Shown piece by piece: positions 1 through 16,592 of a stretch of 18,148 nt of DNA (the stretch's first letter is position 1; every line of letters begins with the position of its first letter). The notes under the pieces were generated by a model. That model ran no database searches, was not told where the DNA came from, and worked only from the letters and a program-made list of their open reading frames with translations. The stretch is from a virus (Duplodnaviria > Heunggongvirae > Uroviricota > Caudoviricetes). The stretch is from the IMG/VR virus record IMGVR_UViG_2609459852_000016. One strand, written 5' to 3'. Made by a program: the position numbers and the translations under genes.

Positions 1-507
1 ATGGAAAAGTTTTCATTGGAGTTCAAAAAGGTAGTATCAGAAAAGTACCTGGAGGGAGAGTTGAGTCTGAAATCTGTAGCAAGGATGTACGGTATCAGTC
101 CCTGCACAGTAAGAAAATGGGCTTATGCCTATCGGGAACATGGGATAAGCATACTTACGGGTAAAAAAGGACGCTATTCTGCTGAGTTAAAACTCACAGT
201 AGTAAAAGAAGTCGTGGATGACTGTTTTTCTGTTCGTGAAGTAGCGGTAAAACACGGAATACCAGCCTTTGGTACTGTATGCAACTGGCTTGAAAAATAT
301 AGAAAATATGGCGAAGATGCTTTCATTCGAAAAAATAAAAAGAGTATTCCTGTACCGGATAAAAGCGCCATTTCAGCACCACCACTACCAACATTAACCA
401 AAGATGAGAGAGAAGAACTTGAACAACTCAGGGTCGAGAATGCCTACTTAAAAAAGCTGAAAGCCTTGGTTCAGCAGAAAACATGCTCAACGTTCAGGAA
501 AAAGTGA
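1..507 (+). CDS. IS3-family transposase OrfA (HTH DNA-binding, leucine-zipper-like C-terminus)
   Basis: ATG at 1, stop TGA 505..507. C-terminal LEQLRVENAYLKKLKAL heptad-like segment is typical of IS3 OrfA proteins. Confidence 0.85.
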   Translation: MEKFSLEFKKVVSEKYLEGELSLKSVARMYGISPCTVRKWAYAYREHGISILTGKKGRYSAELKLTVVKEVVDDCFSVREVAVKHGIPAFGTVCNWLEKYRKYGEDAFIRKNKKSIPVPDKSAISAPPLPTLTKDEREELEQLRVENAYLKKLKALVQQKTCSTFRKK

Positions 508-1346
508 GCATTGTGAATGAACTAAGGCAGGAATGGCCATTATCCCGATTGTTAATTGTTTCCGGGCTGCCCCGGAGTACATTTTACTATCATGTCAGAC
601 GGCTTGCTGCTCCTGACCGGTATCAGTCTGCCAGAGCGCTTGTGCTGAAAATTTATCACCAGCACAAAGGCCGCTATGGTTACAGACGCATCAGGCTGGC
701 ATGTCGTAACGAGGGGGTTTTACTTAATGGTAAAACCGTCAGAAAACTGATGAAGGAACTGGGTATTAGCAGCCTGATCCGCGTTAAAAAATACCGTTCA
801 TATAAAGGAGAACAAGGACGAATTTGCGATAATCTCCTGAAACGCAATTTTGATGCAAAACGCCCCAACGAGAAGTGGGTTACAGATGTCACTGAATTTA
901 AAGTGAATGGCAAGAAGCTGTATTTGTCGCCCATCATGGATCTTTATAATGGAGAAATAATTTCCTATAACCTCGCCACTCGCCCTCAACCTTCAATGGT
1001 GCAGACTATGCTTACGGATGCGCTGAAACAGCTGTCGAAAGATGAACACCCCATACTGCACAGCGATCAAGGTTGGCAATATCAGATGTCCCGGTGGCAA
1101 CGATGGTTAAAGGATAGCGGTATAGTCCAGAGTATGTCTCGCCGGGGAAATTGTCTTGATAATGCAGTTATAGAGAGCTTTTTTGGAACATTGAAATCAG
1201 AATGTTATTACCTCAATGAATATAAAAATGTGGAGGACTTAAAGCGAGACATCATTGATTACATAAACTATTATAATCAATTGAGGATAAAGGAAAAACT
1301 TGGCGGTCTTAGCCCGGTACAATATCGATTGAGTCAGGCTGCATAA
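483..1346 (+). CDS. IS3-family transposase OrfB (DDE catalytic domain), probably expressed as an OrfAB fusion by -1 frameshift
   Basis: ORF in the -1 frame relative to orfA. Slippery run G AAA AAG at 498..504 sits immediately before the orfA stop. DDE motif residues are present. Confidence 0.85.
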   Translation: MLNVQEKVSIVNELRQEWPLSRLLIVSGLPRSTFYYHVRRLAAPDRYQSARALVLKIYHQHKGRYGYRRIRLACRNEGVLLNGKTVRKLMKELGISSLIRVKKYRSYKGEQGRICDNLLKRNFDAKRPNEKWVTDVTEFKVNGKKLYLSPIMDLYNGEIISYNLATRPQPSMVQTMLTDALKQLSKDEHPILHSDQGWQYQMSRWQRWLKDSGIVQSMSRRGNCLDNAVIESFFGTLKSECYYLNEYKNVEDLKRDIIDYINYYNQLRIKEKLGGLSPVQYRLSQAA

Positions 1347-1373
1347 GTTGTCCAAGATCTGGGGCGCAGTTCA
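1347..1373 (+). repeat. Right terminal inverted repeat of the IS element
   Basis: Sequence gttgtccaagatctggggcgcagttca ends in CA; homology of the interrupted gene M breaks exactly here. Confidence 0.6.
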
Positions 1374-1586
1374 AAATGCGCGGACGCCACCGTGCCGTTC
1401 CAGAAAGGCTTTTAAAGATGGGTGTTCACATTTACGAACACGTATCGTCACGCTGTAAGTTGACAACTGGTTATTCAGTCCCGCCGCACGACGCTGTTCA
1501 TAACCATCGCCCAGCTTCACTGTCACCACTTTCGGCTCTGATACCACATTCATATCCGGGCGCACTTTCCAGTGAAACGTCTCCAT
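1371..1586 (-). pseudogene. M: Minor tail protein M (lambda gpM-like), truncated by the IS insertion
   Basis: Translation METFHWKVRPDMNVVSEPKVVTVKLGDGYEQRRAAGLNNQLSTYSVTIRVRK...HGGVRAF matches lambda gpM (MKTFRWKVKPGMDVASVPSVRKVRFGDGYSQRAPAGLNANLKTYSVTLSV...HGGWKSF, from memory). The reading frame ends in a TGA formed by the first three bases of the IS terminus. About 70 of roughly 109 codons remain. Confidence 0.7.
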
Positions 1587-4500
1587 TACCGATATGCTCC
1601 ACTTAACCGACCACCATCACGGGCCTGCTGTTGCATAAAGTCCGCTGCCGCTTTTTTCCCAAGGTCATAAACCACCTTCAGGGCAGCCGGACCTATCTGC
1701 CCGTTCGTGCCATCGTTATTGATCTCGATGTTGTACTGCGGGGCAAACATCGCCATACCTGAACCACCAATATCCGCCACAACCCCCAGCTTACCGTCAG
1801 CACCACGACGCAGAGGCAGAATGGCTTCAGGTCCCGCTTCACCCATCACACCCGCGCCTTTTGCAAAAGCAAAAAACGTCGGACGGTTAACCACCGTGCC
1901 ACTGTAACGACTCAAATCAGCAGACTGATAAATCCCCCCATTGGCATTCAGGGAAAGGCTGCTGAGATCAAATCCCAGTACACTGCCAATCCCTTTTATC
2001 GATTTCATCATGGTTGCCTGCGCCAGGATTTTCGCCATATCTGACAGCACAGAAGAGGTGAAGGATTTGAAATTGAGTTTGCCGGTAGTGACAAAAGTTG
2101 CCAGGCCATTTCCCATGTTGCTGAAGGCTGACGAGAACACCTGTTCTGCTGTTCCTGCCGTATTATCTGCATCCACGGTAAAATCCTGAAATGCACGCAG
2201 GACTCCGTTTTTCCAGTTACCCTGCACAACTTCAAGCTGTTGCCAGTAACGGCGATTCTCATTCAGTTGTCGGTTCAGGCTCTCCGTCAGCGCCTGCTCG
2301 GCCTTTCTGTAGTCATCCGTGTTATATGTCCCTTTCTGCTCACTATCCCGCCTCAACTGCTCCAGCTGTTGCTGGTATTTCTGGCGAAGACTCAGTTGTA
2401 CCTGATATCGCTGCCGCTGCTGATCACCCATACCCACCGTGGCGATATCCAGGTCATGTTGCTGACGCTGAGCGCGCTCTTCTTCAGCCAGTTGACTGGT
2501 CAGCTGAATTGTTTTTTTCTTCAGATCGTTGAGTGCCGTCTGTTTCTGAAGCTCCTGCTGTTTTACATCCAGCAGCGTCAGTGCCTGAATCAGTTCATCT
2601 TTACGGGCCAGCACACTCTTTTCATCTGCCGTCAGTTTTTTCCCGTCCAGATCGCTGATGCGCTGCTGCAGAGCCAGAAGCTGTTTATGCGCTTCTGTCA
2701 TCTTTTCAGTGGCAATGCCTGCTGACTGTCTTGCAGCAGCAATCTGTCCTTCCACCTGTGCCTGTTGCTGACTGTACTGCAGCAATAACCGGGTGGCCTC
2801 ATCATTACGGGTTTCGCGTGTTTTTTTCTTACCGGATGCCAGGGCTTTCTCGTAACGTTCATTTTCACGTTGTATCGCTGCATCCCTGACAGCCTGATCG
2901 GCGTACTGCATGGAATTAATACGCGCAATTTCACGCTGATGTCGTGCTGCTTCCGTTTCATTCATCCGGTTCAGTGCAGCATTTTCAGCATTACGTCGTT
3001 TCTGTTGCTCCTGATAATTCCGCTCTGCCTGCTCTTTTGCATCCTGCAAATCCTTCTGGCGTTTTTTCTCCTGAAGATCGTTAAGACGCTGCTGATCGTA
3101 TTCAACCTGAGAAGATGATGCCGTCCAGGGGAGTCTTTTCGCCCGCGACACTTTCTCCTGTAAAGCGGCAATCTGTTCATCCAGCGAGTCTTCACGACCA
3201 ATATTCATGGCCGCATCCCAGAAACGACTCCACAAATCAGACAGATACTTCAGCGTACTGCCAAGCGCATTGAGGTTATCATCAATATCCGCAGTACGCC
3301 GACCGGTTTCCTCTGCCAGTGCAGACATGGCTATCCGTGCAGCATCACTGGACCGTCCCTGATCCCCAAGGACACGTATCTGCTCAAGCTGAGTGGCAGT
3401 AAGAAAATGCAGCTCATTGTCCAGAGCCTTCGCGGCATTTACAGGATCATCCTTCAGCCGCTTAAACTGATTTATGGTATCGCTGACCGACTGGCCAACC
3501 GATCGCTCCATCTGTGCGGCAGCTCTCGCCACCATACCGATATCGTTTCCACGAAATGCACCACTCCCCACCACCTGAGCCAGCGCACCGGCTGCAGCAT
3601 GTTGCGTGATACCATTCCCGGAAATAGCACGACTGAGCGTCCACAGCTGCCCGGCAGTGACTCCGGCATAATGCCCCGTCAGCGACAACTGGCGGTTAAA
3701 TTCTTCCCCCTCCTTCTGACCGTCATACCAGGCTTTACCCAGACCATAGACGGACGCGGCAATACCGCCAATAACCCCGCCAAGCATCATGCCTTTCGGT
3801 GACATCAGAGTGTCTATCCATCCGGCACGGTTAGCCAGCGTTATCCCGGATCCCCTCAGCGCCCCTAAATTGCCGCGGGCCAGTTCACCTATCAGAACGC
3901 CTATCTCCTGGCGGGCCGCTGCACTTTTCAGACCCAGCGAATGCGTGGCTTTTCCTGCCTGCTCCATTTTGCGGATATACACTTCTGCAGCACTGCTTAC
4001 CCCCAGCTGGGCAGCCTTAGCACGAAGCAACTCAGAAGAAGAAAGATTCTGGCGGGTTGCCTGCTCTTTAAGCTGACGGATAAACGCCACTTTCTGTCGG
4101 GTAGCCTCTTCCTCAGCCTGCGTAAGAACACGGGTTTTCGCCGTAACCTCAGAAATCAGCGCCAGATAATCCTGCTGACCAATCCCGCCACTGTTTCTGG
4201 CCTGTCGGATCTGCTGCTGAATACGCTGTAATTCCTGCAGCCCCGCACTGGCCTGTTTCACACTGTCAATCTGACGATAAAACGCGGCAGCCGCTTTATC
4301 CTGAGCCTCCGCCAGAGCCATGGCCTGCGCCTGTTCCTCGCGCATTTTCTGGCTCAGTGCCTCCATACGCTGGCGGGTTTGCTCCACCTCGCGGGCCATG
4401 CGTTCATGAGCCTGTGCGCTCTTCTCCACCGTCTGCGCATGGACGGATGCGGCTGTTGCAGCCGAAGAAGCCGCCTGCATTGTCTGCCGGGCGGCCTGAG

Positions 4501-4651
4501 TCTGACGCTCCATAAAACGCTGCATACGGGCAGAAGACCGTTCTGCATCGCTGGCTGCACCATTCAGAAGGTTTTTGATACGGGGAATTTCATTTTTAAA
4601 CTCTGCCGCATCAATCCCCAAATCAATGACCAGGTTGGCTATCTGGTCCAT
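1586..4651 (-). CDS. H: Tail tape measure protein (lambda gpH-like)
   Basis: N-terminus MDQIANLVIDLGIDAAEFKNE and C-terminus EINNDGTNGQIGPAALKVVYDL resemble lambda gpH. ATG at 4651 is preceded by GGAGG; the track start at 4681 is a TTG. Stop TAA overlaps the M start (TAATG). Confidence 0.9.
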   Translation of the reverse strand: MDQIANLVIDLGIDAAEFKNEIPRIKNLLNGAASDAERSSARMQRFMERQTQAARQTMQAASSAATAASVHAQTVEKSAQAHERMAREVEQTRQRMEALSQKMREEQAQAMALAEAQDKAAAAFYRQIDSVKQASAGLQELQRIQQQIRQARNSGGIGQQDYLALISEVTAKTRVLTQAEEEATRQKVAFIRQLKEQATRQNLSSSELLRAKAAQLGVSSAAEVYIRKMEQAGKATHSLGLKSAAARQEIGVLIGELARGNLGALRGSGITLANRAGWIDTLMSPKGMMLGGVIGGIAASVYGLGKAWYDGQKEGEEFNRQLSLTGHYAGVTAGQLWTLSRAISGNGITQHAAAGALAQVVGSGAFRGNDIGMVARAAAQMERSVGQSVSDTINQFKRLKDDPVNAAKALDNELHFLTATQLEQIRVLGDQGRSSDAARIAMSALAEETGRRTADIDDNLNALGSTLKYLSDLWSRFWDAAMNIGREDSLDEQIAALQEKVSRAKRLPWTASSSQVEYDQQRLNDLQEKKRQKDLQDAKEQAERNYQEQQKRRNAENAALNRMNETEAARHQREIARINSMQYADQAVRDAAIQRENERYEKALASGKKKTRETRNDEATRLLLQYSQQQAQVEGQIAAARQSAGIATEKMTEAHKQLLALQQRISDLDGKKLTADEKSVLARKDELIQALTLLDVKQQELQKQTALNDLKKKTIQLTSQLAEEERAQRQQHDLDIATVGMGDQQRQRYQVQLSLRQKYQQQLEQLRRDSEQKGTYNTDDYRKAEQALTESLNRQLNENRRYWQQLEVVQGNWKNGVLRAFQDFTVDADNTAGTAEQVFSSAFSNMGNGLATFVTTGKLNFKSFTSSVLSDMAKILAQATMMKSIKGIGSVLGFDLSSLSLNANGGIYQSADLSRYSGTVVNRPTFFAFAKGAGVMGEAGPEAILPLRRGADGKLGVVADIGGSGMAMFAPQYNIEINNDGTNGQIGPAALKVVYDLGKKAAADFMQQQARDGGRLSGAYR

Positions 4652-5350
4652 AACGCACACCTCCGGAAATACCTTCCCCAAGATGCATCAGTTCTTCGTC
4701 CGTTCGCTCCGGTATCCCGTTCTCTTCCGGTAAAAGGCTGAAATCAGCCACCGCAGCATCACTGCTACCGGACACCATTCTCACGATCAATGCCTTCAGC
4801 GAGGCAAACTGCGCATCCATCCACACATCACTGAAGCTCTGCATCCGGAAATAATCGCCCCACTCACCAAGCTCAGTGGCCGACATTTCCGACAGCATCC
4901 GCCGCCAGTCTGCCCGCCGGAACTCCCGGGCAAGCCGCATGACAAACTGCATTTCCCGCGTCAGGACTTTTCCGGCGTCAGCACCTCATGCTCCAAATCC
5001 CCGGCATTCTCAATGACTCCCATACCGCTCAGCGACAGAACCATCTCCGCCCCCGCTCCCAGGGCATCATACGACCATGTTGTAATAACGGATGCGCAAA
5101 GCGTCTCAACATCCTGAGACTGTTCCGCATTCCACAGTGAGCGGGAAACCAGCCAGGCATTGATATCCATCCCCATCCGCAGAAAAGCAATCTGTCGTTC
5201 AGCCTCCGGCAGTTCTCCCTCTTCGGCATCAAACTTTGCCGTTCGCTGCTGAACAAACGCCAGATATTCAATTCTCTGCAGCCCGGACAGCTCACTGAGC
5301 ACCACGGACTGCTTTTCATAATTAAACGTGCCCTGTTTCAGAAACATCAT
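4623..5350 (-). CDS. Tail assembly chaperone GT fusion, made by programmed -1 frameshift near the end of G
   Basis: The T-frame ORF (4623..4952) lies in the -1 frame relative to G and overlaps its 3-prime end. Candidate slip site GGAAAAG (plus-strand 4967..4973, read on minus) is analogous to lambda GGGAAAG. The T frame is closed by a stop 13 nt upstream of the slip site. Confidence 0.6.
4961..5350 (-). CDS. G: Tail assembly chaperone G (lambda gpG-like)
   Basis: MMFLKQGTFNYEKQSVVLSELSGLQRIEYLA resembles lambda gpG (MFLKTESFEHNGVTVTLSELSALQRIEHLA). ATG at 5350 (or 5347) is preceded by GGTGGAG; the track start at 5389 is a TTG. Confidence 0.8.
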   Translation of the reverse strand: MMFLKQGTFNYEKQSVVLSELSGLQRIEYLAFVQQRTAKFDAEEGELPEAERQIAFLRMGMDINAWLVSRSLWNAEQSQDVETLCASVITTWSYDALGAGAEMVLSLSGMGVIENAGDLEHEVLTPEKS

Positions 5351-5363
5351 GTTCTCCACCTGC

Positions 5364-5387
5364 AAAAAAGCCCCGGATAACCGGGGC
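5364..5387 (-). terminator. Intrinsic terminator between major tail gene V and G
   Basis: On the minus strand: GCCCCGG-UUAU-CCGGGGC (7-bp GC stem) followed by UUUUUU, lying between the V stop (5408) and the G SD/start (5350). Confidence 0.65.
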
Positions 5388-5407: not shown

Positions 5408-6151
5408 TTAACCTGCGGCGCTGACAGCCACCGCAGCCACTGCCACAAAATCGCCGTCAGAAGTCATGCCCACAATGCTGACACTGCCCTGCTTCACGCC
5501 TTTCACCGTGGCCACAAGCCCGTTCAGGGTCACCGTGGCAGTCTGTGGATCTGTCGAATGCACACTGATCGCTTTGTCACTGGCTCCGTCAGGTTTTACT
5601 GTAAAGGTCAGCGTGGTGGTTGCTCCCACTTTTACACTGGCAGATGCCGGTGCCACCGTCAGCCCGGTAACGCTCACTGTTTCAGTGCCTTCCTCTGCCA
5701 GATACGGACGCCCCACACCGCTGATTTTCACTGTGCGGGTCATCACGTCTTTTGAGGCAATGGTTTTACCCAGTGAGCTCAGCCAGCCACGGAAAACATC
5801 AACAGTGCCGTTGGGATATTTGATACGAAACGCGCAGACTTCACCGGAGTCGAACAACTGAACCAGTTTTTTCTGCCCGCTGTCACCCGGACGCCAGGCC
5901 AGCGTCGCCGAAGTATCACCGACGGATTTCTGCCCCTGGGTTGTCGTTTTCCAGTCTGCATCTTCATCATCGAGATAAGTGTCATCTTCTGCATCAGCGG
6001 TCATTTCGCCAGGTTGCAGATCCTTCACCATCGCAAGACGCAGCCAGTCAGTGTCCGATAAAGGGTTCGCAAACGCATCGCCCTTGCCGGTGTACATCCA
6101 GAACGTCGTTCCCGCACCTTTCGTTTTTGCCAGTGGATTTGGTGTGGTCAT
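5408..6151 (-). CDS. V: Major tail protein V (lambda gpV-like) with C-terminal Ig-like domain
   Basis: MTTPNPLAKTKGAGTTFWMY...YLDDEDADW...NGTVDVFRGW matches lambda gpV. ATG at 6151 is preceded by AGGAGG; the track start at 6157 is a GTG. Confidence 0.9.
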   Translation of the reverse strand: MTTPNPLAKTKGAGTTFWMYTGKGDAFANPLSDTDWLRLAMVKDLQPGEMTADAEDDTYLDDEDADWKTTTQGQKSVGDTSATLAWRPGDSGQKKLVQLFDSGEVCAFRIKYPNGTVDVFRGWLSSLGKTIASKDVMTRTVKISGVGRPYLAEEGTETVSVTGLTVAPASASVKVGATTTLTFTVKPDGASDKAISVHSTDPQTATVTLNGLVATVKGVKQGSVSIVGMTSDGDFVAVAAVAVSAAG

Positions 6152-6162
6152 TGCCACCTCCT

Positions 6163-7150: not shown

Positions 7151-7426
7151 TTACTCAATAAAGATCATTGGCTTACCGTTAAAACGTTCATGCCGTGTGA
7201 CCGTCCATTGTTGTCCGTCATAAACAACGCGATCCCCGCGCCGTGGGCGGTATCCCGAAGAAAACACCACCAGAGAGACCGCAGGTCCGGACAGAGCATT
7301 CAGCTCTGCCAGTGTTTCTCCCGGGATCACAGTCATATCGACATCATTAATCGAGGCTGTCTTTCCCATCTTTCTAACCGTGATAGCATCCATACGCGCT
7401 GCCAGCCGGGAAAAGGGATCAGACAT
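7151..7426 (-). CDS. Head-tail joining protein (lambda FII-like)
   Basis: Sits in the FII position (before Z), about 90 aa, with weak motif similarity to lambda FII. Overlaps the upstream gene by 8 nt. Confidence 0.55.
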   Translation of the reverse strand: MSDPFSRLAARMDAITVRKMGKTASINDVDMTVIPGETLAELNALSGPAVSLVVFSSGYRPRRGDRVVYDGQQWTVTRHERFNGKPMIFIE

Positions 7427-7742: not shown

Positions 7743-7785
7743 AACTGTCTCCGCACAGCCCCGTTCAGGGGCTGATTTCAGGTAC

Positions 7786-7804
7786 AAAAAAAGCCCTTAC
7801 GGGC
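7786..7804 (-). terminator. Putative intrinsic terminator/attenuator immediately after the capsid gene
   Basis: Minus strand: GCCC-GUAA-GGGC (GNRA loop) followed by UUUUUUU. A second 6-bp hairpin AGCCCC-UGAAC-GGGGCU lies at 7757..7773. Confidence 0.45.
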
Positions 7805-7828
7805 CATCAGAGTTGTTGTCTGCGACGT

Positions 7829-14205: not shown

Positions 14206-14246
14206 ATAAAAATAAAACCACTGTAATATCAATCAATTACAGTGGT
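14206..14246 (-). other. Perfect 11-bp-stem hairpin plus U-tract in the cosB position (terminator-like or terminase/IHF site)
   Basis: Plus-strand accactgtaat-atcaatca-attacagtggt (14217..14246). On the minus strand it is followed by UUUAUUUUUAU (14206..14216). Confidence 0.4.
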
Positions 14247-14873: not shown

Positions 14874-15168
14874 TTTGTCGCTCCATTCGTTTGCTCTTCA
14901 CTTGCGGCTAAAAATATAACGTCAAATCACTCAGCATGAAAGAGTGAAAGTTTCAGCGCGTTTCCCTCACATAATCTGTCGTTTGTATTCTCTTCAGGCA
15001 TACCGGAAAGACTAGGTATTGTCACACAACCAATACCATCGACAATCGAGATTTATATCTATTCGGTAATGTTTAAATATAACAAAACCCCGTAAAAACG
15101 AGGTTTATGGGTAATTTGTATTGTTGAATAGCATCTGATGAGAAATTGATGCTAATACTATAAACATG

Positions 15169-15342
15169 CTAGATTAAATCAATCTTGATATCATAGCTTT
15201 CAAGACCAGTCATTTTTTCCCGTGCAGTAAACTGGATACTGGTAACTTCTTTCCCGGTCTTTTTCTTAAGCTCAATGATTTTTTTTGTTATATATTCAGA
15301 AATATCTGCTTCTGTTTTTGTTTTTAACTCTTCAATGTTCAT
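15169..15342 (-). CDS. gnsB: GnsA/GnsB-family protein
   Basis: MNIEELKTKTEADISEYITKKIIELKKKTGKEVTSIQFTAREKMTGLESYDIKIDLI closely resembles E. coli GnsB (from memory). ATG at 15342 with AGAGGA SD. Confidence 0.75.
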   Translation of the reverse strand: MNIEELKTKTEADISEYITKKIIELKKKTGKEVTSIQFTAREKMTGLESYDIKIDLI

Positions 15343-15514
15343 CATTTCCTCTTTTAGTCTGTTATGACTGTCCTGGTACACAGTAGTGTCAATTATATGG
15401 AGCAAACGTATAAAAGATAAGATGAAACATCGCAATAATCAACATACGACGGTCTAAATTTCACACAAACAGATAAAGATGATTATCATTTATTATCAAT
15501 GCATTAGAATCAAA

Positions 15515-15809: not shown

Positions 15810-16016
15810 CTTCATTTTCACTTTCTTAAATCTAACGACAGATGGCTAACATTTAAGTATTGTGAAATATTATCAAATGTAATCATCATTGATTTACAAA
15901 AGATACATTTTGCCCCGAAAGGATTTCTGTCAGAAACATCAAAAGATGATGTTCTATACTGAGAACCATGGCAACACGGGCATCTAAAGTGAATATGGTT
16001 TGTAATATTTTCTACC

Positions 16017-16229
16017 TCAAAGTGCCACTACATGAACAGCTGCAGGGCCTTTAGGTCCGTTCTCAATACCAAATTCGACTTCCTGATTCTCAGTTAACGT
16101 TTTGAAATCGTTGCTCTGAATAGCTGAGAAATGCACAAACACATCTTTGCTACCATCTTTCGGCGTGATGAAACCAAAACCTTTTTCAGGGTTAAACCAT
16201 TTCACTAAACCAGTCATTTTGTTAGACAT
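16017..16229 (-). CDS. cspI: CspA-family cold-shock protein (CspI-like)
   Basis: [38 protein letters not shown]...: cold-shock domain with RNP motifs, near-identical to E. coli CspI as I recall it. AAGGTAATA SD-like leader. Confidence 0.9.
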
Positions 16230-16592
16230 CATTATTACCTTTTGAAGAAGTTAGCCCTTGGGCAGAATGGTCCGAAAAAAAATATCAGAGAGAAAAACCA
16301 ACAAGGAAATCTCAAGAGGTACAAATAATAAAATTATAACAATGACTGCTTCAGATAATTTTGTAACAAACCAGAACACCATTAACGCATGATTAACCAA
16401 CCATAGCAAGGATTACTTTTGTAAAGAAAAACACACGAATGAAACAATAGCTTTATTTATTAATAAAACGTGTCATTCTGTCTAATGACCTTTTATCTTA
16501 CCCTTAAGATTTCAAGGATTTTGACTCATGGAAGAGTCCTTTTTATTTAAATTTCACATTCAGCGCTAAAAATAATCCGATTTAATATTAAT
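16230..16592 (-). promoter_or_regulatory. AT-rich promoter and long 5-prime leader region upstream of cspI
   Basis: About 360 bp without ORFs between the Rz stop and cspI start. Contains a TATAAT on the minus strand (plus-strand 16333..16338). Cold-shock genes typically have long structured leaders. Exact promoter not resolved. Confidence 0.3.

Follow-up and report, generated by a model that had tools for sequence, protein, structure and literature searches.

A GC hairpin and U tract between the tail tube gene V and the chaperone gene G of an mEp460-type prophage: a candidate leaky terminator

A very stable GC hairpin followed by six U residues lies between the major tail tube gene V and the tail assembly chaperone gene G in the window, by which we mean the whole 18,148-nt stretch of viral DNA analysed here. 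On balance we lean towards its being a leaky or antiterminated terminator that would also serve as a protective 3' hairpin for the V mRNA, favouring V over G, GT and H. The terminator reading, put forward in an earlier note on this DNA, gains from the sequence features of the element, its position between V and G, its conservation and its annotation by others as a rho-independent terminator, and a terminator after the abundant V fits a known design (the capsid-gene hairpin, Cluster O mycobacteriophages, T7). The same reading is weakened by the sister lineages, in which GC hairpins without a U-run occupy the same site and suggest a function of the RNA hairpin itself, be it in protecting the 3' end or in differential decay, no less than one in termination.

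The V-G junction and its hairpin

All late genes of the window are on the minus strand. The gene names V, G, T and H used in the earlier note were borne out by Pfam, which also identified U (Phage_tail_U) and a head gene that is a ClpP-protease/capsid fusion. The junction and the genes around it comprise the following features.

5408..6151, minus strand: gene V, major tail tube protein of 247 aa, with the stop TAA at 5410..5408 (Pfam Phage_TTP_12, 6e-67, and a C-terminal Big_2)
5387..5370, minus strand: stem-loop GCCCCGG-UUAU-CCGGGGC, seven G-C pairs and a 4-nt loop (sequence, consensus scan, folding)
5369..5364, minus strand: U6 tract directly 3' of the stem, with the predicted RNA 3' ends (sequence, consensus scan)
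5360..5354, minus strand: Shine-Dalgarno sequence GGUGGAG of G, beginning 4 nt past the U tract with three intervening bases, GCA (sequence)
4961..5350, minus strand: gene G, tail assembly chaperone of 129 aa (Pfam Phage_TAC_2, 7e-40)
4623..4973, minus strand: T reading frame (Pfam Phage_tail_T, frame analysis)
1586..4681, minus strand: gene H, tape measure, downstream of the hairpin and presumably dependent on read-through (Pfam TMP_2 and Tape_meas_lam_C)

Read along the minus strand, the order is GCA GGT TAA (the V stop, 5410..5408), 20 nt, the hairpin, TTTTTT, GCA, GGTGGAG, AAC and ATG ATG, so that the hairpin begins 20 nt past the TAA of V in a V-G spacer of 57 nt. The 7-bp all-GC stem, the U6 tract, the 20 nt that separate them from the end of V and the location just ahead of the Shine-Dalgarno sequence of G had all been described exactly in the earlier note. 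The length given here for V agrees with the mEp460 annotation, and the ORF listing runs on to a GTG at 6157. Two start codons are present for G, ATG 5350 and ATG 5347, of which ATG 5347 aligns with the start of lambda G (MFLK). By analogy with G and GT of lambda, ribosomes translating G presumably slip into the T frame (-1) at the heptamer G GAA AAG (4973..4967) to give GT. This apparent slip heptamer on the minus strand differs from the G GGA AAG of lambda; the C-terminus of G, PEK(S), is common to Gifsy-2 and PLEK to the Providencia homologue, and the variant heptamer may therefore be conserved in this branch.

The site has the sequence features of an intrinsic (Rho-independent) terminator: a GC stem within the range of about 5-14 bp, a loop within that of 3-8 nt, a U tract immediately 3' of the stem, the sense orientation and a location in non-coding RNA downstream of a stop codon. 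It ranked first among the 34 terminator-like matches that the consensus scan returned for the window. Folded in isolation, the hairpin has a dG of -16.2 kcal/mol, an ensemble frequency of 99% and a z of -4.5 against dinucleotide shuffles, and the fold of its 81-nt context reaches a z of only -1.7, so the significance is that of the local hairpin and not of the context. A perfect 7-bp all-GC stem with T6 appeared in none of 1000 dinucleotide-preserving shuffles of the whole window, both strands included, and the same stem with five of six T allowed appeared in 2 of 1000.

On the plus strand, the palindrome is followed by AAATGATG, which is without a T-run, and the element is thus unidirectional and directed only in the sense direction; the ideas of a bidirectional and of an antisense terminator were rejected on this ground. 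We also considered an outer helix in which UC-A-UCAUUU, upstream of the hairpin, would pair with the Shine-Dalgarno sequence of G, and rejected it as a conserved feature because three of its pairs are G-U and relatives whose Shine-Dalgarno sequence differs (L091-L094) do not have it. The hairpin occurs once in the window and at a median of one place per E. coli genome, and it is not of the REP/BIME type. An Rfam scan of the whole window gave no match at the hairpin; its sole hit was the cspA thermoregulator at 15971..16387.

Occurrence of the hairpin in close and diverged relatives

The V-G region is 97-99.7% identical to that of phages vB_EcoS-569R4, Ayreon, phi458, cdtI and mEp460, and judged by such matches the window belongs, from position 1374 on, to a very common prophage of E. 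coli, a lambdoid of the mEp460/cdtI type. The 91-nt V-G junction was found at an identity of at least 95% in 1789 of 5426 complete E. coli genomes, or about a third. When rows were sampled across the ranking, the junction lay under tail-gene annotations in 25 of 25, and in all 24 full-length sampled rows it lay between a tail-tube gene and gpG. Among 85 close relatives, 67 have an identical V-G spacer; variation in the stem is confined to single substitutions of the apical pair, which leave a stem of at least 6 bp, and to one record with a 1-nt loss at the boundary between the stem and the U tract. In mEp460 one apical C-to-U change gives a G-U wobble. We found no compensatory base changes in the stem among these 85 alignable relatives, and the structural argument therefore rests on the lineages that are not alignable.

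Position 1374 is the point from which other E. coli genomes match the window. An insertion sequence of the IS3 family (1..1373, plus strand), with transposase ORFs at 1..507 and 483..1346 (rve / HTH_21), interrupts the tail operon just after H and cuts the M gene (Phage_min_tail; 1371..1586, minus strand) at 71 of about 109 aa. Given this truncation and the extent of the genome matches, the present copy of the prophage is probably defective.

The element is not new, as it is already annotated in near-identical phages by calls that are themselves computational: in GenBank, mEp460 (JQ182728) and Ayreon (MF807953) each have the V-G site entered as a regulatory feature labelled 'rho-independent terminator' or 'terminator', and a second annotated terminator directly 3' of the protease/capsid gene. 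A functional study of the V-G terminator in lambdoid phages was not found in the literature searched. The remark in the earlier note that lambda is not known to have this arrangement is right, the lambda V-G spacer being 15 nt (TAATCCGGAGAGTCAGCGATG) without a hairpin; the novelty which it implied holds with respect to lambda and fails for lambdoid phages in general.

For the wider comparison, G homologues were gathered from phage records (tblastn) and from 79 genome loci (alignment-based scan), and every V-G junction was extracted; a search of viral contigs with a single G protein returned only relatives of 99-100% identity. The junctions fall into three classes. Class (i) has no hairpin and a distance of -1 to 15 nt between V and G, with TGATG overlaps and a Shine-Dalgarno sequence within or just past the V stop, and it includes lambda, Stx phages, N15-like (Ravinvirus-like) phages, Proteus, Xenorhabdus and Pantoea. 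Class (ii) has a GC hairpin followed by a T-run, in sequences unrelated to one another, and includes the mEp460-type family of the window. In class (iii) the GC hairpin closes on a 4-nt loop (UUCG, GNRA-like and others) and is not followed by a T-run. The members of the latter two classes are as follows.

Providencia, class (ii): AGCCACA..UGUGGCU-U7
Ewingella, class (ii): AGCCCC..GGGGCU-U7
Kluyvera, class (ii): GGCUCC..GGAGCC-U5
Edwardsiella, class (ii): CCCGCC..GGCGGG-U6
Symbiopectobacterium and Serratia, class (ii): two hairpins
Gifsy-2, class (ii): a weak version, a 5-bp stem with two G-U pairs and -5.5 kcal/mol
Class (iii), examples: CGGGGC-UUCG-GCCCCG and GGGGGC-GUGA-GCCCCC
Class (iii), hosts: Kluyvera, Buttiauxella, Atlantibacter, Leclercia, Kosakonia and Trabulsiella

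A perfect GC-rich hairpin of at least 5 bp was present in 21 of the 22 distinct V-G spacers of 30-100 nt, as against 1.1 expected from composition-matched shuffles, where the 22 spacers are not all independent (at least about ten unrelated hairpin sequences are among them) and mononucleotide shuffles of short GC-rich spacers are individually weak tests. The presence of at least about ten different hairpin sequences at one site indicates that the structure is maintained and the sequence is not. About half of the hairpin-bearing spacers have no U-run. Across the lambda-type family, as far as the junction sequences tell, the V-G hairpin is facultative, and so is the U tract. Many relatives manage with junctions of 9-15 nt or with overlapping genes, which means that the hairpin is dispensable for a working tail module, and tail stoichiometry can be set by translation alone.

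Two further observations were made on these junctions. The spacers of Serratia marcescens (L110) and Symbiopectobacterium (L108) have the first hairpin in common, as they do the two halves of the second; in L110 the halves of the second hairpin are about 160 nt further apart than in L108 (spacer of 236 versus 77 nt), as if by an insertion in the loop. Short low-coverage contigs about 100% identical to the lambda V-G region (L143-L155 and L163-L168) came from assemblies of unrelated organisms, including Neobacillus, Pseudomonas, Kitasatospora, Shewanella and Bradyrhizobium, and these are most likely contamination of the sequencing libraries by lambda control DNA.

Presumed read-through and possible roles of the hairpin

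Downstream of the hairpin, intact relatives carry G, GT, H, M, L, K, I and J, all of them essential (mEp460 and Ayreon records). Between 5364 and 1586 (the end of H), the promoter scan of the minus strand gave no sigma-70-like site, and an internal promoter for G to H was rejected on that basis. The arrangement is thus one of a high-copy product, V, encoded upstream and essential lower-copy ones downstream without a promoter-like site, as at T-phi of T7. From the viability of isolated phages that carry the hairpin, such as mEp460, Ayreon and cdtI, we take it that they read through it and that it cannot be an efficient end-of-operon terminator in lytic growth.

The hairpin at V-G is not the only one that the late transcript would meet. 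Two hairpins lie after the capsid gene of the window.

7805..7786, minus strand: terminator-like hairpin GGCCC-GUAA-GGGCU followed by a U-run, dG -8.8 (scan, folding)
7774..7756, minus strand: GC hairpin CAGCCCC-UGAAC-GGGGCUG without a U-run, -13.9 kcal/mol, z -2.9 (folding)

The first is located 23 nt past the stop of the ClpP-protease/major-capsid fusion gene, at the capsid-side terminator of the mEp460 and Ayreon annotations, and the second directly before the Shine-Dalgarno sequence of the cement-protein gene (ATG 7742). This pair (7756..7805) has the same arrangement as the double hairpin after V in Symbiopectobacterium L108. In lambda, the hairpin ATGGCCC-UUCG-GGGCCAU begins 3 nt past the stop of the capsid gene E (lambda 7163..7180; L003 2164..2181), with -12.9 kcal/mol, a z of -3.2 and a weak U-run (UGUUUCUCU). 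The consensus scan also found terminator-like hairpins in the same transcript path ahead of terminase and head genes, which are essential. Some 100 nt before the small terminase gene, the late transcript would meet a further terminator-like site, an AT-rich hairpin of 11 bp (ACCACTGTAAT...ATTACAGTGGT) with a T-rich run behind it (14217..14246, minus strand).

Between the lysis cassette and the terminase genes there is in addition a moron-like insertion on the minus strand. It consists of a cold-shock protein gene (16017..16232) with a cspA-type thermoregulator 5' UTR (15971..16387; Rfam RF01766, 110 bits) and a gene of the GnsA/GnsB family (15169..15435), and it has promoter-like and terminator-like sites of its own (15974..15946 and 15106..15085).

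The Q protein of lambda renders the late polymerase resistant to terminators. A Q-like 'late gene regulator' is encoded in the complete genome of mEp460, and the window ends before that region. This regulator together with the hairpins ahead of the terminase genes argues that the late polymerase of the present phage is terminator-resistant as well. Considering the presumed read-through, the Q-like antiterminator and the other hairpins to be passed, the real drop in transcription at the V-G site may be small, and processive Q antitermination could make termination there negligible. The V-G junction occurs in an O157:H7 strain (Z1486), and Term-seq and dRNA-seq data exist for O157 Sakai (GEO GSE143631).

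With these points in mind, the reading of a leaky or antiterminated terminator that also protects the V mRNA can be put as follows. During late transcription, the 7-bp G-C hairpin and the U6 tract would form in the RNA exit channel. An unmodified polymerase, in the lysogen or in leaky transcription, would stop there, and a Q-modified polymerase would mostly pass on to G, GT, H and the remaining tail genes, with a fraction terminating. RNAs terminated at the hairpin, or cut in the U-rich single strand downstream of it, would end in a very stable 3' hairpin which would block 3'-to-5' exonucleases, and the RNA for V and the upstream genes would then outlast and outnumber that for G, GT and H. Together with the capsid-gene hairpin, the predicted outcome is a stepwise fall in message across the head, tail-tube and minor tail genes.

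The class (iii) hairpins and the post-E hairpin of lambda suggest that what these junctions have in common may be the protective hairpin, with termination added to it. Carried further, this becomes a separate reading, tentative and in our judgement somewhat doubtful, in which the GC hairpins that follow the tail-tube gene (as well as the capsid gene) are a recurrent and repeatedly reinvented element whose primary function is that of a barrier to 3'-end decay, not termination. The ratio of V to G/GT/H message would then be set even under processive Q antitermination and the U-run would be optional, which would explain why about half of the lineages have the hairpin without a U tract.

We find it rather unlikely that the hairpin is a terminator for the lysogen only, an insulator against stray or read-in unmodified polymerase which the Q-modified polymerase ignores, leaving the V:G:H ratios unaffected. 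Such a role would suit the canonical terminator shape, the Q-like antiterminator of mEp460, the several terminator-like hairpins that must be passed before essential late genes, and the presence of the module, as prophage, in one E. coli genome out of three. It leaves unexplained, however, the placement specifically after the two most abundant structural genes, as well as the U-run-less hairpins of the sister lineages, which could not insulate.

The junctions of the hairpin-less lineages, with their -1 to 15 nt, are typical of translational coupling, and where a hairpin is present it stands between the stop and the Shine-Dalgarno sequence, ending 3-9 nt before the latter in lineages that lack the U-run, and at 4 nt in the window's family. 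The hairpin might accordingly be taken for a translational decoupler, stopping V ribosomes from re-initiating on G so that G and GT would be set by the Shine-Dalgarno sequence of G itself. We regard this as improbable: the U6 tract would be unneeded for that role and yet is conserved in the window's family, and the predicted pairing of the flank with the Shine-Dalgarno sequence is weak (three G-U pairs) and disappears in relatives in which the latter differs. Other U-run lineages have a less clear Shine-Dalgarno sequence, and there 17-40 nt separate the end of the hairpin from the start codon of G. Finally, a functionless relic of modular exchange (for example, of a V that once ended an operon) or a chance palindrome would agree with the absence of the hairpin from many functional relatives, lambda included, and with the degenerate look of the Gifsy-2 version, but is made highly unlikely by the shuffles (0 of 1000), by the near-perfect conservation of the core stem in the 85 close relatives and of the junction in 1789 complete genomes, and by the recurrence of hairpins of different sequence at the site (21 of 22 against 1.1).

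Comparison with known systems

Lambdoid late operons are usually described as one uniformly antiterminated transcript in which protein ratios are set by translation. If the V-G hairpin is active as a leaky terminator and protective 3' end, these operons would also rely, downstream of the capsid and tail-tube genes, on partial termination or differential decay as steps at the RNA level. This would be a modest refinement of the design of phage gene expression and not a new mechanism, and it could be of use in engineering phage operons and in interpreting prophage RNA-seq. The value added here is small and lies in the comparative picture of a facultative, sequence-variable V-G hairpin, with or without a U-run, and a matching hairpin at the capsid gene.

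The closest counterpart is the element annotated in mEp460 and Ayreon, which is 97.5-99.6% identical over V-G, is located likewise between the genes for the major tail protein and gpG, and differs in nothing substantive. With canonical intrinsic terminators of E. coli (the trp attenuator, the lambda tR' type) the V-G hairpin shares the 7-bp GC stem, the tetraloop, the immediate U6 and the position on the sense strand after a stop codon; unlike them, it lies inside an operon, upstream of essential genes without a promoter-like site. Intercistronic stabiliser hairpins set differential mRNA decay in the malE-malF (REP), Rhodobacter puf and pap operons. These too are stable hairpins 3' of a highly expressed cistron, and the U-run-less V-G hairpins as well as the post-E hairpin of lambda fit the type, whereas the element of the window has a full U tract and is single-copy, not a REP-type repeat.

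In phage T7, a leaky terminator, T-phi, follows the major capsid gene 10. The likeness to the V-G hairpin, where the arrangement is a predicted one, is that of a partial terminator after an abundant structural gene with essential lower-copy genes that need read-through. T-phi, in contrast, is a terminator of measured efficiency for T7 RNA polymerase, and the V-G hairpin would act on the host polymerase, presumably modified by Q. Inefficient terminators have been reported to balance expression in T7. In Cluster O mycobacteriophages, a stem-loop terminator has been predicted after the major tail subunit gene (PMC4351075). The tail operon of these siphophages has the same elements (major tail subunit, stem-loop, chaperone genes) and was given the same interpretation, likewise as a prediction, although the sequence and the host are unrelated, the stem is of 12 bp and bulged, and the T-run is weak. 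Viewed alongside these systems, the V-G hairpin is, in its predicted activity, an ordinary kind of operon-tuning signal of a familiar design.
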